Of a stretch of 64,000 bases of DNA, positions 441 to 14,988 are shown in pieces (within the stretch, counting starts at the first letter, position 1; every line of letters starts with the position of its first letter). This stretch comes from a virus. The position numbers and the translations under genes were made by a program. The stretch lies in IMG/VR virus record IMGVR_UViG_3300037193_001436, positions 32,001 to 96,000 of that record, one strand, 5' to 3'. The notes under the pieces are model-generated. The model worked only from the letters and a program-made list of their open reading frames with translations, ran no database searches and was not told the DNA's origin.

Positions 441-498
441 TGGAGCGCCGGGGATCGAACCCGGATGTTGCCCCAGGCAACCGCCTTGGCAACGCCCC
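441..498 (-). ncRNA. 58-nt mini tRNA-like element
   Basis: GGGGCG/CGCTCC-A acceptor with G3.U70, T arm CCGGG-TTCGATC-CCCGG, two small hairpins in place of D and anticodon arms. Confidence 0.6.
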
Positions 499-4775: not shown

Positions 4776-5296
4776 GACAGGACCTCCTTCAGGGCGGTCA
4801 GGATCTGGGTGCGCGTGGGGAGCACCGGCCACGGACCTTCCGGCCTGCTCGTGACCGAGTAGTCGGTGTGGCGGAGCAGGGCCTGCCACAGGGTCGTGAC
4901 GCGCGGCTCGCTGGTCAGGATGATCGAGTAGGAGCTGTCCCAGCTCGATTCGGACGGCTGGTCGACGACGGCGAAGATCCGGGCGCGGGCGTCGGAGCCG
5001 AGCTTGCCGAAGAGGCTGGACCCGTTGTCGAGGTGCATCATCAGCTCCAGCGACTCCTCGGTGCCGAGGACCGGGGACGTGATGCTCAGGATCTGCCAGT
5101 CCTCCAGGACGACGGTGATCTCGTCCTCCTCGCCCAGCATGAGGGCCTGGAGGAGATCGGCCACGATGCGGGTGTCTCCGGCCCAGACGACCTGGCGGCC
5201 GTCGTCAGTGGTGCCGGTCATCCGGACGACGCTACCGTCCTGGATCGCCGATCCGGCGTCGCCCAGGTCGACGGTGATGGTCAGGTGGTCGTCCAT
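4772..5296 (-). CDS. hypothetical protein
   Basis: TGATG coupling, codon usage. Confidence 0.7.
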   Translation of the reverse strand: MDDHLTITVDLGDAGSAIQDGSVVRMTGTTDDGRQVVWAGDTRIVADLLQALMLGEEDEITVVLEDWQILSITSPVLGTEESLELMMHLDNGSSLFGKLGSDARARIFAVVDQPSESSWDSSYSIILTSEPRVTTLWQALLRHTDYSVTSRPEGPWPVLPTRTQILTALKEVLS

Positions 5297-5601
5297 CAGG
5301 ACCTCCCCAGAATGTTGGAGATGGCTCGGGCCACGCGGCTGTCGTCGATCGGCGCGGTGTCCTCGGGCCAGAGCTTGAGGATCAGCTTGCCGGTCGACAG
5401 GTCGAACACGTAGGACAGGTACTTCGGCATCTCTCGGTGGATCCGGCGCAGCTCGGCGCTGATGACCTTGACGTCGTCGGTCCGCTTGGTGACCTGCAGC
5501 TTGCGCTTGACCGGGTTCGGAACTGCGACGGCGTACCGCTTGTTCGCGGCGCAGCGGACCTTCAGCCCGTCGGCGCTCAGCGTCTTGGCGTTGCGAGACA
5601 T
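5296..5601 (-). CDS. basic hypothetical protein
   Basis: AGGAG RBS. Confidence 0.7.
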   Translation of the reverse strand: MSRNAKTLSADGLKVRCAANKRYAVAVPNPVKRKLQVTKRTDDVKVISAELRRIHREMPKYLSYVFDLSTGKLILKLWPEDTAPIDDSRVARAISNILGRS

Positions 5602-5626
5602 GGGTGCTCCTGTGGTGGTTTTGATT

Positions 5627-5929
5627 TCAGGGGACGATCACGGCCCGGGTCTCTTTGGGAAACCCGTCGGCGACGTAGTCCAGCCAGGAGTTGCGGTTAT
5701 TCACCGTGGCGACGTACTGCAGCGTGAGCCGCTGCTGCACCTTCGGGTCGGTGGCGTTCCGCAACAGGTCCTCCAGCACGTCGATCTCCTTGTCGCGCGT
5801 GGCGATCATCGCCTCCGCCCCGGCCGCCCGCTTGCGCGGAAGGCTCGACCGGAACGGCGAGGACTCGACCGGACCGTTGCGGTCCGCCGTCCTGCTGTCC
5901 CGGGGGAAGGTGGCGACTCGACGAGCCAT
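5627..5929 (-). CDS. hypothetical protein
   Basis: AAGGAG RBS; promoter at 5960-5989. Confidence 0.65.
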   Translation of the reverse strand: MARRVATFPRDSRTADRNGPVESSPFRSSLPRKRAAGAEAMIATRDKEIDVLEDLLRNATDPKVQQRLTLQYVATVNNRNSWLDYVADGFPKETRAVIVP

Positions 5930-5959
5930 GATGGCGTCTCCTTGCGTGGTGGAGCCACC

Positions 5960-5989
5960 ATGGAATCACAACTGTGAGTCATGTGTCTA
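5960..5989 (-). promoter_or_regulatory. SigA-like promoter TAGACA-N18-TTCCAT
   Basis: Same architecture as promoters at 2991 and 9586 (GACACAT, N18 spacer, then a short hairpin and CCACCAC). Confidence 0.55.
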
Positions 5990-6053
5990 CTTGACTCGCG
6001 GGTTAGGTTGAACAACTAACCGCCAGGCTCGATCGCCCTAGCCTGTTGGGCAT

Positions 6054-6201
6054 CGACGATTGGTGTAGTGGCCCGGCACCCCACGCCGGGAGCTGCCTGC
6101 ACATCTCTCGGCGGCGTCCGGACGCTCGGGCCGAGCGAATTACTGCACGTGGTTAGCACGCCGGGGCACCGGTGGGCGGGGTTCGATTCCCTGATCGTCG
6201 A
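6054..6201 (+). ncRNA. 148-nt tRNA-like RNA with expanded anticodon and variable arms
   Basis: Perfect 7-bp acceptor CGACGAT/ATCGTCG, U8, D arm GTGT-AGTGGCCCG-GCAC, T arm CGGGG-TTCGATT-CCCTG. Confidence 0.7.
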
Positions 6202-6215
6202 CTTACACTGCGGAC

Positions 6216-6467
6216 ATGAAGCTCATCGGGATCCCACCGCGTGCGACCCAGGCCCAGCAGGCGCTCAACCGGCTGCACCACGAGGTGATGTACGCCGTCG
6301 AGGGGGGTGAGCTGGCCGGGAACTTGACCGAGCTGGCGGAGGCACTGGCGATCGCCGTGCAGATCGGCCGCCTGATCGACAAGGCCTTGCCCGAGGGACA
6401 TCCCGAGCGAATTCAATTTGAGAACGCACTGAACTTCATGCAGGGCCTACACGAGTATCCCCGCTGA
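6216..6467 (+). CDS. helical hypothetical protein, probably leaderless
   Basis: TACACT -10 box 6 nt before ATG; high GC3. Confidence 0.7.
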   Translation: MKLIGIPPRATQAQQALNRLHHEVMYAVEGGELAGNLTELAEALAIAVQIGRLIDKALPEGHPERIQFENALNFMQGLHEYPR

Positions 6468-6473
6468 AATTCG

Positions 6474-6725
6474 TCAGCGGAACTGGTCGGCGTTCAGGTA
6501 GGAATTCGCCTGGCCGATCTGGGGCCGGGTCGTCGGCCCATTCGACCCCATGCTCGGGATCGGCATCGCTGGGGACTTGACCATCCTCGCCAGCGCCGAT
6601 TCGGCTCCGCCACCGGCAGCACCTTCGGCTGCCGTTCCAGCGGCTGCCCGGCCGAGCATCGATGCTCCAACCCTCATCAGGGCAGCACGCCCTACCGCTG
6701 CGGCGACTGGTGCGAGGAAGGCCAT
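6474..6725 (-). CDS. small Ala/Gly-rich protein, probably leaderless
   Basis: GACAAT 6 nt before ATG; fills the gap between genes. Confidence 0.55.
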   Translation of the reverse strand: MAFLAPVAAAVGRAALMRVGASMLGRAAAGTAAEGAAGGGAESALARMVKSPAMPIPSMGSNGPTTRPQIGQANSYLNADQFR

Positions 6726-6814
6726 GCATCCATTGTCGCGCTCAGCCCGGATCGCTTGTAAGTAACAACTACCGGCCGTGGAAATCGGCCTACCGGTCTC
6801 GGCAGGCTGGATGC

Positions 6815-6970
6815 ATGACCGATGAGGAGTGGATCGAGCGGACGCTGGCCGACGCGCCAGAGCGTCTGTCTGACCGCACCCGCGAGATCATCCTGCGTTG
6901 GCGAACCACACGACCTCAAGCCGCTCCGGATTCCACCGAGCGTTCCGAGATGCAGCCTTCTGCACGATGA
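6815..6970 (+). CDS. candidate recombination directionality factor (phiRv1 Rv1584c-like)
   Basis: EWIERTLADAPERLSDRTREIIL resembles the Rv1584c segment YLIRTLAAAPPLTDEQRTRL as recalled; convergent with and overlapping the integrase 3' end. Confidence 0.55.
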   Translation: MTDEEWIERTLADAPERLSDRTREIILRWRTTRPQAAPDSTERSEMQPSAR

Positions 6971-8372
6971 TGACCTCGATCTCGGACTGCACCAGCTCAC
7001 GCTTCTGGTCGTAGTAGTCGGGGTCGTCCCAGTGCTCCAGCACGTCCTTCATGTGATCGCGGTTGACCGCCGTCGCGTCGTTGCGGGCCCAGGCTTTCCG
7101 CTGCTTGATCAGCACCTCGGACTCCTGCTCGACCTTGCTGATTTCCGGGAAGACCACCGCAGCCGACAGGGCCCCGGACCGGTACGCGGCCATCAGCTCG
7201 GTCTTCTGCTCCTGGAGACGGGCCAGATCCGCTTCGCCCGGCCACGCGGTGGCGATGTGCTGGTCGAACTTCTCATCCGAGCGAGTGAGCCGGGTAAAGA
7301 CCAGCTCGGAGATCAGTTGATCGGTCCGCGTGAGGTGGATGTAGTTGGACCCGCAATTGAACCGCTTGCCGGACCCCGGCGGGCACTTGTAGGAGCTGGT
7401 GTCCTGGCCCTTGTAGTCCGCTCGACCGCCGGACATCTTGCAGGAGCAGACGCAGCGCATCCGGCCGGAGCACAGGTGCTTGCGGCTGAAGTCCAGGTGG
7501 GCGACGGCGGCGGCGTTCCCATCGAGGCGGGCCTGGATCCGCTCCCACTCCTGAGGGGAGCAAAGAGGCGCGTTGCTCTCGACCGGCTTCCCGTTCACCA
7601 TGATCGGGAAGTTCTTGTACCCGCGCCAGCCAGCCAGGCGCGGCATTCTCAGCCAGGCGCGGAGGGCAGCGGTTGTCCAAGGCCCCCCGCTGGTGTGGTT
7701 CACGTTCTCGGCTCGCAGCCACTTGACGATCGTGCCGCCCTTGTGGCCCGCGAGGTACTTCATGATGATCTGCCGCGCGACTGGGCCCTCGACGGGGTGC
7801 AGGTCGACCTTGTTCTTCTCCCAGCCGAACGGCCGGAAGCGACTGCCGACCGGTCTGCCCATCTCGGCCAGCTCCAGGTGCTTACGCCCCACGCGCCGAG
7901 AGGTGTCGTACGAGGACTTGTTGGCCATCGTGACCAGGAGTCGGGCGAACGTCCGGCCGTCGGCCGTGGCCAGGTTGAGGTCGTTGGTGACGGTCGCGAA
8001 TACCAGGTTCTGGTCCGCCTCGTACAGGTCGATCGCGGCCTCCAGCTCCTTCGGCTGGCGGGTGAAGCGGTCGATGTCGTACGCGACGATGCCCTGAATG
8101 ATCCCGGCCTTCAGATCGGCCAGCATCTGCCAGAACTGCTCCCGGAAGACGTTGCGCTTGTAGGCCGACAGATCGTCGTCGACATAGACCTTGTGGACGG
8201 TCCAATTCCGGGCTTTGGCCAGCGCCCGGCCATCCTTCTCCTGGCGCTTGACGCCCGCACTGAACTCGTCCGGGTTGTTCTTGGACTCGTCGTCCTTGTC
8301 CTCGGAGATCCGGGCGTAGACACCAACCAGGATCGGCGGATTCGCCAGCCGCTGCTTCTTCCCCGTGTTCAT
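6888..8372 (-). CDS. int: large serine integrase
   Basis: YARIS catalytic motif, DRFTR, recombinase domain (RPFGW), Zn ribbon (CVCSCKM..YKC..C), coiled coil. Confidence 0.95.
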   Translation of the reverse strand: MNTGKKQRLANPPILVGVYARISEDKDDESKNNPDEFSAGVKRQEKDGRALAKARNWTVHKVYVDDDLSAYKRNVFREQFWQMLADLKAGIIQGIVAYDIDRFTRQPKELEAAIDLYEADQNLVFATVTNDLNLATADGRTFARLLVTMANKSSYDTSRRVGRKHLELAEMGRPVGSRFRPFGWEKNKVDLHPVEGPVARQIIMKYLAGHKGGTIVKWLRAENVNHTSGGPWTTAALRAWLRMPRLAGWRGYKNFPIMVNGKPVESNAPLCSPQEWERIQARLDGNAAAVAHLDFSRKHLCSGRMRCVCSCKMSGGRADYKGQDTSSYKCPPGSGKRFNCGSNYIHLTRTDQLISELVFTRLTRSDEKFDQHIATAWPGEADLARLQEQKTELMAAYRSGALSAAVVFPEISKVEQESEVLIKQRKAWARNDATAVNRDHMKDVLEHWDDPDYYDQKRELVQSEIEVIIVQKAASRNARWNPERLEVVWFANAG

Positions 8373-8388
8373 GCCGCCATGCTCCCAG

Positions 8389-8438
8389 TCGATAGTGTTT
8401 CGAGTCAACTGGGACCAGTTGAATTAGAACGCTATCGA
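8389..8438. mobile_element. attP: attP site for the serine integrase
   Basis: 24-bp arms matching 19/24 as an inverted repeat around a central GA dinucleotide, just 5' of int. Confidence 0.8.
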
Positions 8439-8484
8439 GATTCCCAGGCTTGACCTGACGGACTGTTGTTGTACCGTACGCGCC

Positions 8485-8625
8485 ATGGACGAGGACAAGG
8501 CTGTCGACCTGCCGGAGCTGGATGCGCTCAGCAGGGAGTTCGTCGACAAGACGCGCGCAGTGCTTGAAGAGTACGAGGCGCACCACGCGCGGGAAATCGC
8601 TCGGTGCCGAGCCGGTGACAGATAG
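8485..8625 (+). CDS. 46-aa protein divergent from int, probably leaderless
   Basis: MDEDKAVDLPELDALSREFVDKTRAVLEEYEAHHAREIARCRAGDR; TTGACC..TACCGT promoter directly upstream. Confidence 0.6.
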   Translation: MDEDKAVDLPELDALSREFVDKTRAVLEEYEAHHAREIARCRAGDR

Positions 8626-8709
8626 CCACTAGTTGTTGTACCGTCATGCGCCTGTGAGGTGGAAGTGCGCCATCTCGGCACGCCGGACGGGGCGTGTGGC
8701 GCACAAAGG

Positions 8710-8743
8710 AAGGACCCCCCGGCGCGAGGGCTAGGGGGTCCTT
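8710..8743. terminator. probable bidirectional intrinsic terminator
   Basis: GAAGGACCCCC...GGGGGTCCTTC stem between convergent genes. Confidence 0.65.
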
Positions 8744-8849
8744 CTTCTCGTGAGGATCGGTCTCCGGGGTTGGTAGATCCCCGGACCACCGCAGGAGCGT
8801 GGCTTTCACCACCACGCGTCCGCCAGGCTCCACCGCCTCACGCGGGTCT

Positions 8850-9074
8850 TCAGTTGTCGGCCGCAGCCCGCTCTTGCTCCTTGCGGCGATAGATGCGCTC
8901 TACCCAGCCCGGGTACAGCGTCTCCAACGCCGCGTGCAGGTCCTGGATTCGGCTGCGGGGCACGGTGACAGTGTAGGTGTCGCCGTTCTTGAGGTTCCGT
9001 TCGGACAGCGCGGTGACGACCCGGACGGCGGCGACCTCCAACTCCTCCTGGGGCGTGCGCTCCTTCTCAGCCAC
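8850..9074 (-). CDS. hypothetical protein
   Basis: GGAGG RBS, GTG start. Confidence 0.65.
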   Translation of the reverse strand: MAEKERTPQEELEVAAVRVVTALSERNLKNGDTYTVTVPRSRIQDLHAALETLYPGWVERIYRRKEQERAAADN

Positions 9075-14250: not shown

Positions 14251-14759
14251 CAGAGATCACCCCGTTTCATGGCGTCGTTGTAGGCCTTCTGCTCCACCAG
14301 GGAGTGCACCGGGCAGAACTCGCACAGGTACCGGTCGTCCTTGGTGTGGTACGCGGGCATCCCGGCTTCCTTGCGGGCCTGTGCGGTGCCGGGCGTGAGT
14401 CGCTTGGAGTCCGACTTGTAGTCGCTGCAGTCGGGGTTGCGGAGATGTTGCCGCCAGCAACTCATCGCGTCTTCGCGGAAGGTGTCGCGAGTGTTGTAGA
14501 AGTCGCTGCCAAGCCCGGTCTCTCCGCCGAACTCGTTGACCAGCTTCTTGGAGATCTCCTTCTGCACGCGGGGATCGTTCCAGTCGGCAGCGTCGACCCG
14601 TGCGAGCATCCCGATGTGCTCTTCGCCGTTGGTCCGGTGCGGCTTGACCAGGTAGTTGAGCAGGACGTCGTGCTCGGGGTCACCGGAGTAGTCGGGCAGC
14701 GGTTCGATGGTCTTGCAGTCCCTGCAGACCAGGAGGCGGATTTGCTCGGGTTCAGTCAC
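14250..14759 (-). CDS. zinc-binding hypothetical protein
   Basis: CRDC, CWRQH..C and CEFCPVH motifs. Confidence 0.7.
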   Translation of the reverse strand: MTEPEQIRLLVCRDCKTIEPLPDYSGDPEHDVLLNYLVKPHRTNGEEHIGMLARVDAADWNDPRVQKEISKKLVNEFGGETGLGSDFYNTRDTFREDAMSCWRQHLRNPDCSDYKSDSKRLTPGTAQARKEAGMPAYHTKDDRYLCEFCPVHSLVEQKAYNDAMKRGDL

Positions 14760-14988
14760 GCGGATCAGTCTTCCGGCCCGGCCCGGGGCATTCTACTGTC
14801 GCGAGTTGTTACTTTGCCGACGTGCCAGGTGATGCAGCGCCTGCAGAGGTAGACATCCATGCCGGTCTGGTACTCGCCGGTGCGCAGCAACCACAGCAGC
14901 CGCCCCAAGGCTGCGGCCTTGGTGGGGAGCTGCAGCTCGTCGCATCCGTCATCGTCGACGTCGGCCCCCTACCAGCGCCGCGCAGTTG

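Follow-up and report, generated by a model that had tools for sequence, protein, structure and literature searches.

A temperate, Streptomyces-type phage carries a 148-nt tRNA-shaped sequence directly ahead of a small open reading frame, and in this sequence a 62-nt structured domain stands in the position of the anticodon loop. The explanation that we favour, and that we regard as quite possible if still tentative, is that this element acts as a processing leader similar to the t-elements of plant mitochondria, and that it would be cut by RNase P and RNase Z from the transcript of the small plus-strand unit to which it belongs.

Phage tRNA genes are usually discussed as decoding aids or as a way round tRNA-targeting defences. 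The phage described here is temperate and related to Streptomyces phages rich in tRNAs; it has no ordinary tRNAs itself and carries two non-decoding tRNA-shaped sequences, both at gene boundaries. If these are processing signals, they would represent the use by a bacteriophage of the tRNA punctuation of mRNAs that is well documented in organelles; a trans-acting role of the larger one would make it a tRNA-scaffolded RNA of natural origin, and a handle on the use of the host tRNA-maturation machinery by a prophage.

The DNA analysed (the window, 64,000 nt) comprises bases 32001-96000 of an IMG/VR record of 107,209 bp, which is rated as complete and ends in direct terminal repeats. The G+C content is 65.7%, and an analysis of third-codon-position G+C places nearly all of the real genes on the minus strand. 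Its portal protein shares 57-58% identity with those of the Streptomyces phages BRock (classified as Borockvirus), GiJojo and their relatives, and 60-70% with those of most of the uncultivated IMG/VR relatives found, two of which are complete.

Cloverleaf structure and the replaced anticodon loop

When introns were allowed (-i0,200), ARAGORN drew a cloverleaf at 6054-6202, the same one that had been described in an earlier sequence-only reading of this DNA, and each of the parts named there (acceptor, U8, D arm, anticodon stem, T arm, two hairpins and a 24-nt variable arm) was found in its place (Table 1). None of the four stems contains a mismatch, and the bases involved in tertiary interactions are all there (U8, A14, G18G19 and T54-T55-C56...A58). 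In its default mode the program reported a poor tRNA-Cys(gca) at 6112-6202, with two acceptor mismatches and C37. This call was gone at the 105% threshold, which the long cloverleaf passed, as it did that of 110%.

Table 1. Coordinates of the tRNA-shaped element, its parts and the neighbouring features, as positions in the window.
Feature	Position	Strand	Remarks
Mini-tRNA, 58 nt	441..498	-	acceptor GGGGCG/CGCTCC (6 bp, G3.U70), discriminator A, T arm CCGGG-TTCGATC-CCCGG
Candidate -10 hexamer TAGCCT	6039..6044	+	fits TANNNT only; start site would be 2-4 nt before the acceptor stem
tRNA-shaped element, 148 nt	6054..6201	+	ARAGORN intron mode; passes 110% threshold
Acceptor stem	6054-6060 / 6194-6200	+	CGACGAT / ATCGTCG, 7/7 paired
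U8	6061	+	T
D stem (D arm 6063-6079)	6063-6066 / 6076-6079	+	GTGT / GCAC, three Watson-Crick pairs and one G.U
D loop, 9 nt		+	AGTGGCCCG; A14 and G18G19 present
Anticodon-like stem	6081-6085 / 6148-6152	+	CCACG / CGTGG, 5/5 paired
62-nt domain instead of anticodon loop	6086..6147	+	folds at -28.5 kcal/mol, z -2.29, 5/200 shuffles as good
First hairpin of domain	6086-6121	+	5+6 bp, 12-nt loop
Second hairpin of domain	6123-6137	+	6 bp
Single strand of domain, 10 nt	6138-6147	+	AATTACTGCA
Variable region, 24 nt	6153..6176	+	6-bp hairpin CGCCGG/CCGGTG, loop GGCA; -11.4 kcal/mol, z -2.26
T arm	6177-6193	+	6177-6181 CGGGG / 6189-6193 CCCTG, loop TTCGATT
Discriminator	6201	+	A
83-aa ORF	6216..6467	+	GC3 0.83; homologues (P0002, P0003) 87% and 53% identical
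Terminator-like hairpin	6461..6480	+	7-bp stem, 6-nt loop, contains ORF stop codon; -12.1 kcal/mol, z -4.95, 0/200 shuffles as good
Large serine integrase	6888..8408	-	Pfam Resolvase and Recombinase; convergent with ORF
attP-like imperfect palindrome, 50 bp	8389-8438		central GA; just 5' of integrase gene; serine-integrase attP layout

In 100 Markov-shuffled genomes of 107 kb, the intron mode produced 0.30 calls per genome at the default (100%) threshold and none at 110%. False calls at the default threshold leave some room for a chance resemblance, as does a weak second call in the phage itself (genome position 14706-14832). Since the element passes the 110% threshold, which was reached by no call in the shuffled genomes, its likeness to a tRNA is real and not due to chance. 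Only two canonical T arms were found in the 107-kb genome, one in the element (6177-6193) and one in a mini-tRNA (441-498), against a mean of 0.55 in shuffled sequence. We consider it very improbable that the tRNA likeness arose by chance or that the sequence serves for attachment or integration and not as an RNA. The minimum-free-energy fold of the element is a rod of -73.7 kcal/mol; the cloverleaf, when imposed, has -67.1 kcal/mol and is 6.6 kcal/mol less stable, and the z-score for the folding energy of the whole element is only -1.79.

As listed in Table 1, the domain that occupies the place of the anticodon loop is made up of two hairpins and a single-stranded linker. The hexamer CTGCAC is present twice, once in the 12-nt hairpin loop and once in the linker. 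The sequence and the ARAGORN results thus bear out the proposal of a structured insert in the anticodon-loop position, with the acceptor/T-arm/D-loop core intact. No usable 7-nt anticodon loop was found in any splice register, position 33 being C in most of them, A in the other two, and U in none. Because U33 is never combined with a purine 37, whichever register is taken, the element, to judge by its sequence, is not a decoding tRNA.

The same result bears on the idea that the element is an intron-containing functional tRNA, which would replace a host tRNA destroyed by integration. Such tRNA-dependent lysogeny has been described for actinophages with tyrosine integrases (PMC10865867), and an integrase does lie near the element. 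This integrase is of the serine type, however, the genome contains no tyrosine integrase, and the attP-like site next to the integrase gene has no tRNA resemblance. The insert, at 55-62 nt, is too short for a group I intron, as had been pointed out in the sequence-only reading, and on 5900-6900 no intron or small-ribozyme family of Rfam was matched even at E up to 10. To our knowledge, the combination of C1-G72 with a long variable arm, here of 24 nt, fits no bacterial tRNA isotype. With no register that joins U33 to a purine 37, the sequence brings this explanation close to refuted, and we give it hardly any credence.

Comparison with known RNA classes

In keeping with the earlier reading, the element matched no family of Rfam, either at the gathering score or, for 5900-6900, at E up to 10. 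With canonical class II tRNAs (RF00005) it shares the 7-bp acceptor, U8, the D loop with A14 and G18G19, a 5-bp anticodon-like stem, a long variable arm, a canonical T arm and the discriminator A, whereas it has no 7-nt anticodon loop, no U33 and no match to the covariance model. It resembles tmRNA in that tRNA ends enclose a non-tRNA domain, and its T-loop sequence is identical to that of the tmRNA of the related phage G002. It differs from tmRNA by an A3-U70 pair instead of G3.U70, by a full D stem, by having neither a tag reading frame nor pseudoknots, and by its size (148 nt as against about 370). ARAGORN found no tmRNA genes and Rfam gave no match, so that the earlier distinction from tmRNA holds. 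The distinction from YrlA was supported as well: YrlA is permuted and paired with a Ro protein, while no TROVE/Ro protein was found in the phage genome and, again, no Rfam family was matched. YrlA and mascRNA/menRNA (RF01684) are small tRNA-like RNAs freed by tRNA-processing enzymes; the 3' half of the element (6149-6193) aligns weakly with mascRNA, a eukaryotic family, at 22 bits against a gathering score of 42.5.

Plant-mitochondrial t-elements (PMC1920247) are, like the phage element, non-canonical cloverleaves that have a conserved T arm and acceptor stem and no decoding role. Their T-arm motif, GGTTCRANYCC, occurs in the element as GGTTCGATTCC at 6180-6190, with the 3' strand of the acceptor stem directly after it. 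The t-elements are positioned either directly upstream of an mRNA, as the element would be, or between genes, as is the mini-tRNA, and those with the motif are proposed to direct cuts by RNase Z and RNase P at the 5' and 3' ends of mRNAs (PMC1920247), which is also what we propose for the element. They are organellar and about 74 nt long, whereas the element belongs to a bacteriophage and measures 148 nt; the two-hairpin domain in the anticodon position and the long variable arm are its own.

In bacteria, operon mRNAs and regulatory RNAs of phages are likewise substrates of RNase P, an example being the C4 RNA of phages P1 and P7, which is cut from the leader of its own operon (PMC4919922). 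Common to C4 and the element are their origin in phages, a tRNA-like site for RNase P, which is putative in the element, and a place immediately ahead of a small ORF in a part of the genome connected with lysogeny. The element differs in having no sequence or Rfam relation to C4 and no above-chance complementarity to the ribosome-binding region downstream. Antisense pairing in cis, in the manner of C4, was rejected as a candidate because complementarity to the downstream start region was no better than that to shuffled targets.

A further parallel is the engineered tRNA scaffold (PMC3753655), in which the acceptor, T arm and D arm are kept and the anticodon stem-loop is exchanged for a structured insert on a stem. 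With exchanged segments of up to about 250 nt, such chimeras are precisely processed by tRNA enzymes, resist nucleases and are stable in E. coli. The scaffold is a laboratory construct, whereas the element is a natural sequence with an ORF downstream. By analogy, the element may be a trans-acting, tRNA-scaffolded ncRNA, in which processing and stability would be provided by the tRNA frame, with the two hairpins and the single strand as its payload. A protein or an RNA would be bound by this payload, or else the whole molecule would be a decoy for a tRNA-binding enzyme or for a tRNA-targeting defence. That the design works in bacteria is known from the scaffold, and the element fits it in that insert and variable arm both fold better than shuffled sequences (z about -2.3), all helices are intact, and the CTGCAC hexamer is repeated in loop and linker. 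Against it, no homologues, target or partner protein were identified, the complementarity to the start region downstream does not exceed that of shuffled targets, there is no Ro/TROVE protein, and a contig from an RNA library runs on from the element into the ORF. A defence-system protein beside the element was looked for as well and rejected, none of the neighbouring proteins having a PADLOC match. In our opinion a trans-acting role of this general kind is unlikely. Its more specific form, a natural counterpart of the laboratory scaffold that belongs to the integration/lysogeny module, carries its payload on the anticodon arm, is released by RNase P and RNase Z and acts in trans as a decoy or a lysogeny regulator, we judge to be quite unlikely. 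Neither the 62-nt insert nor the 24-nt variable arm is needed by a processing signal, and at this low level the idea of a payload therefore stays alive.

Relatives of the element were sought in several collections. Searching 50,697 phage records by blastn with the locus and with the element yielded matches to the T loop only. In IMG/VR, an exact pattern of the 21-nt 3' end retrieved no homologue, and a two-anchor D-loop/T-loop pattern gave 45 matches, none of which had more than 5 of the 7 acceptor pairs. Scans of viral, genome and metagenome contigs for related loci, based on the integrase, returned no homologous locus; those based on the 83-aa ORF, on its homologue P0003 or the alignment of the two, on the integrase relative P0006 and on the antisense ORF 6822-8453 were empty, as was a tblastn search of phages with P0003. 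As no homologue was retrieved in the viral, metagenome and genome scans, there is no family and no covariation, and the earlier claim of a new class of RNA is not supported.

The small plus-strand unit and its proposed processing

The unit consists, in this order, of a weak candidate promoter, the tRNA-like element, the 83-aa ORF and a terminator-like hairpin, and it lies within a genome that is almost entirely minus-strand. The hexamer TAGCCT proposed earlier as a -10 box is present at its given position; as a promoter it is weak, matching TANNNT alone, and a scan for consensus promoters found none of the sigma-70 type. The ORF is the only well-supported plus-strand gene in this part of the genome, and its ATG lies 15 nt downstream of the end of the element. 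The terminator-like hairpin is not followed by a T run.

The family to which the ORF belongs is rare, with about 25 small metagenomic relatives among 1.8 billion representatives. Three helices are predicted in the protein, the structure model being of low confidence (pLDDT 66), and the look-alikes found in the Atlas of structures are generic helical repeats only. The ORF has no Pfam, PHROG or PADLOC match. A blastn search of plasmids returned a weak match between 60 nt within the ORF and genes of Streptomyces plasmids, of which three are annotated as DUF6247, and at the protein level the similarity extends over 30 residues; for the ORF it is not confirmed by Pfam.

One metatranscriptome library (labelled as a plant metagenome) contained a single 220-nt contig that corresponds to 6137-6356 with zero differences. 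This contig bridges the junction between element and ORF, with 65 nt from the element and 155 nt from beyond it. It is compatible with co-transcription of the 3' part of the element and the ORF, with the limit that contigs do not show strand or termini and could stem from carried-over DNA. In run X5 there was no cover over the rest of 5000-9000; contigs cannot show absence, and the left end at 6137 is not read as the end of an RNA. The whole stretch is present in four DNA-type runs of one study, which is not the study of the RNA library, and these runs may be where it came from. The sequence-only reading had called the element an ncRNA in its own right. The tRNA shape stands, whereas independence is called into question by the ORF that the element adjoins at 15 nt; since the contig from the RNA library spans the junction, a leader or processing signal accounts for the observations no less well than an ncRNA of its own would.

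What RNase P, RNase Z and the CCA-adding enzyme recognise in a tRNA is the helix of acceptor and T arm, stacked coaxially, together with the elbow at which D loop and T loop meet. If the element is a processing leader, the tRNA-maturation enzymes of the host would recognise these features, which are intact in it. RNase P would cut at 6053/6054, and a second cut, by RNase Z or its equivalent, would fall behind A6201. The two cuts would provide the ORF mRNA with a defined leader of 14 nt, in which no clear Shine-Dalgarno sequence was found. The 148-nt tRNA-shaped RNA thus released would probably be stable and would gain a CCA end. Transcription from the candidate promoter is presumed in this scheme, and an effect of the processing on ORF expression or on lysogeny may be envisaged.

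We favour a processing leader because the cloverleaf is statistically real, with fully paired stems, its tertiary bases kept and no usable anticodon loop; because an ORF with homologues follows 15 nt downstream and a strong hairpin closes the unit; and because the RNA-library contig bridges the junction and the mini-tRNA sits between genes. The case for a leader is weakened by the energy of the cloverleaf, which lies 6.6 kcal/mol above that of the minimum-free-energy fold, by the weak promoter, by the lack of a clear Shine-Dalgarno sequence, and by the two-hairpin insert and the long variable arm, which the model does not account for. It is also weakened by the outcome of the homologue searches, which yielded no relative and hence no covariation.

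At 6467-6717, a variant about 85% identical was seen in low-depth contigs of runs X1 and X2. Before 6467 this variant contig does not resemble the phage. Of 17 substitutions from about 6550 on, 10 are at positions that are multiples of 3, a pattern suggestive of a small gene, not annotated, that would lie between ORF and integrase, either at 6550-6765 on the plus strand or at 6474-6725 on the minus strand.

Related phages, the mini-tRNA and the integrase region

The complete relatives G001 and G002, as well as BRock, carry 18-31 ordinary tRNAs, with a tmRNA also in G002, and an integrase was not found in any of the three. The 107-kb genome of the integrase-bearing phage contains no Rfam match to tRNA, either at the gathering score or, when scanned from end to end, at E up to 1. 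In G001-G005 and BRock, searches at the DNA and protein levels, together with the ARAGORN intron mode on the complete G001-G004, found none of the tRNA-like element, the 83-aa ORF and the integrase. The tRNA content is thus a clean contrast within one phage group (G000 versus G001, G002 and BRock), the integrase-bearing phage having lost the array of 18-31 tRNA genes, and the tmRNA seen in G002, of its integrase-less relatives.

One possible explanation for the element is that it is a decaying tRNA gene, a functionless relic of a tRNA-rich lineage, which was disrupted by insertions and has come to lie before an acquired gene by chance. The contrast with the tRNA-rich relatives is in keeping with such an origin, and so is the fact that the element cannot decode and is an orphan in every searchable collection. 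Against such an origin, the element lies on the opposite strand and in a different place from the tRNA array of the relatives. It resembles none of their 70 distinct tRNAs beyond generic features, and derivation from a specific tRNA of a related phage was rejected on this ground. Stems that have stayed free of mismatches despite two large expansions are not the pattern of decay, an ordinary tRNA is not restored when the insert is taken out, whether the CACG repeat at its edges goes with it or stays, and the position before the ORF is exact, with a terminator behind. We find a relic somewhat unlikely. A repeat or mobile insert was also rejected, the element being single-copy in the genome and insert removal giving no ordinary tRNA.

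The mini-tRNA is flanked by two genes on its own strand. The stop codon of the gene upstream precedes its start by 8 nt, and between its end and the Shine-Dalgarno sequence of the next gene there are about 40 nt. Its ends resemble the tRNA-like domain of tmRNA with the middle missing, and no counterpart was found in G001-G004 or BRock. The suggestion that the mini-tRNA and the larger element together point to a tRNA-mimic system was not sustained: they are 5.6 kb apart on opposite strands, with nothing linking the two. A position between genes is the layout expected of a processing signal, and in this respect the mini-tRNA fits the same logic as the processing leader proposed for the larger element.

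The integrase is 27-33% identical to annotated serine integrases of Streptomyces and Mycobacterium phages. Its 100% match, P0004, has 494 aa, and because this is the length called in the protein database, the real start is probably near 8372. The palindrome at 8389-8438 bears on the notion, introduced above with that of chance, that the element is an attachment site: the palindrome is a separate attP-like site for the serine integrase, and an element that serves as the attP of a tyrosine integrase was rejected, no such enzyme being encoded in the genome. The neighbourhoods of the integrases of phages Nanodon, Ibantik and prophiGD54-2 contain no tRNA-like element.

Several minor features were observed around the integrase gene. 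At 6816-6890 on the plus strand, an ATG-initiated frame, MTDEEWIERTLADAPERL..., has high third-position G+C for about 27 codons and extends, in antisense, over the 3' end of the integrase gene; it could represent a small gene convergent with the integrase, perhaps a candidate directionality factor, or just an artefact of high-G+C antisense sequence. At position 8038, inside the integrase gene, a 3-nt insertion (CCT) was seen in a short contig of runs X2 and X3, at about a third of the summed depth, and may reflect length variation within the population or come from a related sequence. Beyond the palindrome lies a divergent ORF of 46-47 aa (8486-8626). On the other side of the plus-strand unit, the early operon of the minus strand starts at 5929, and a promoter-like cassette at 5930-5995 on that strand comprises TAGACA, a spacer of about 17 nt, a -10-like hexamer, a CCACCACGC box and AAGGAG.
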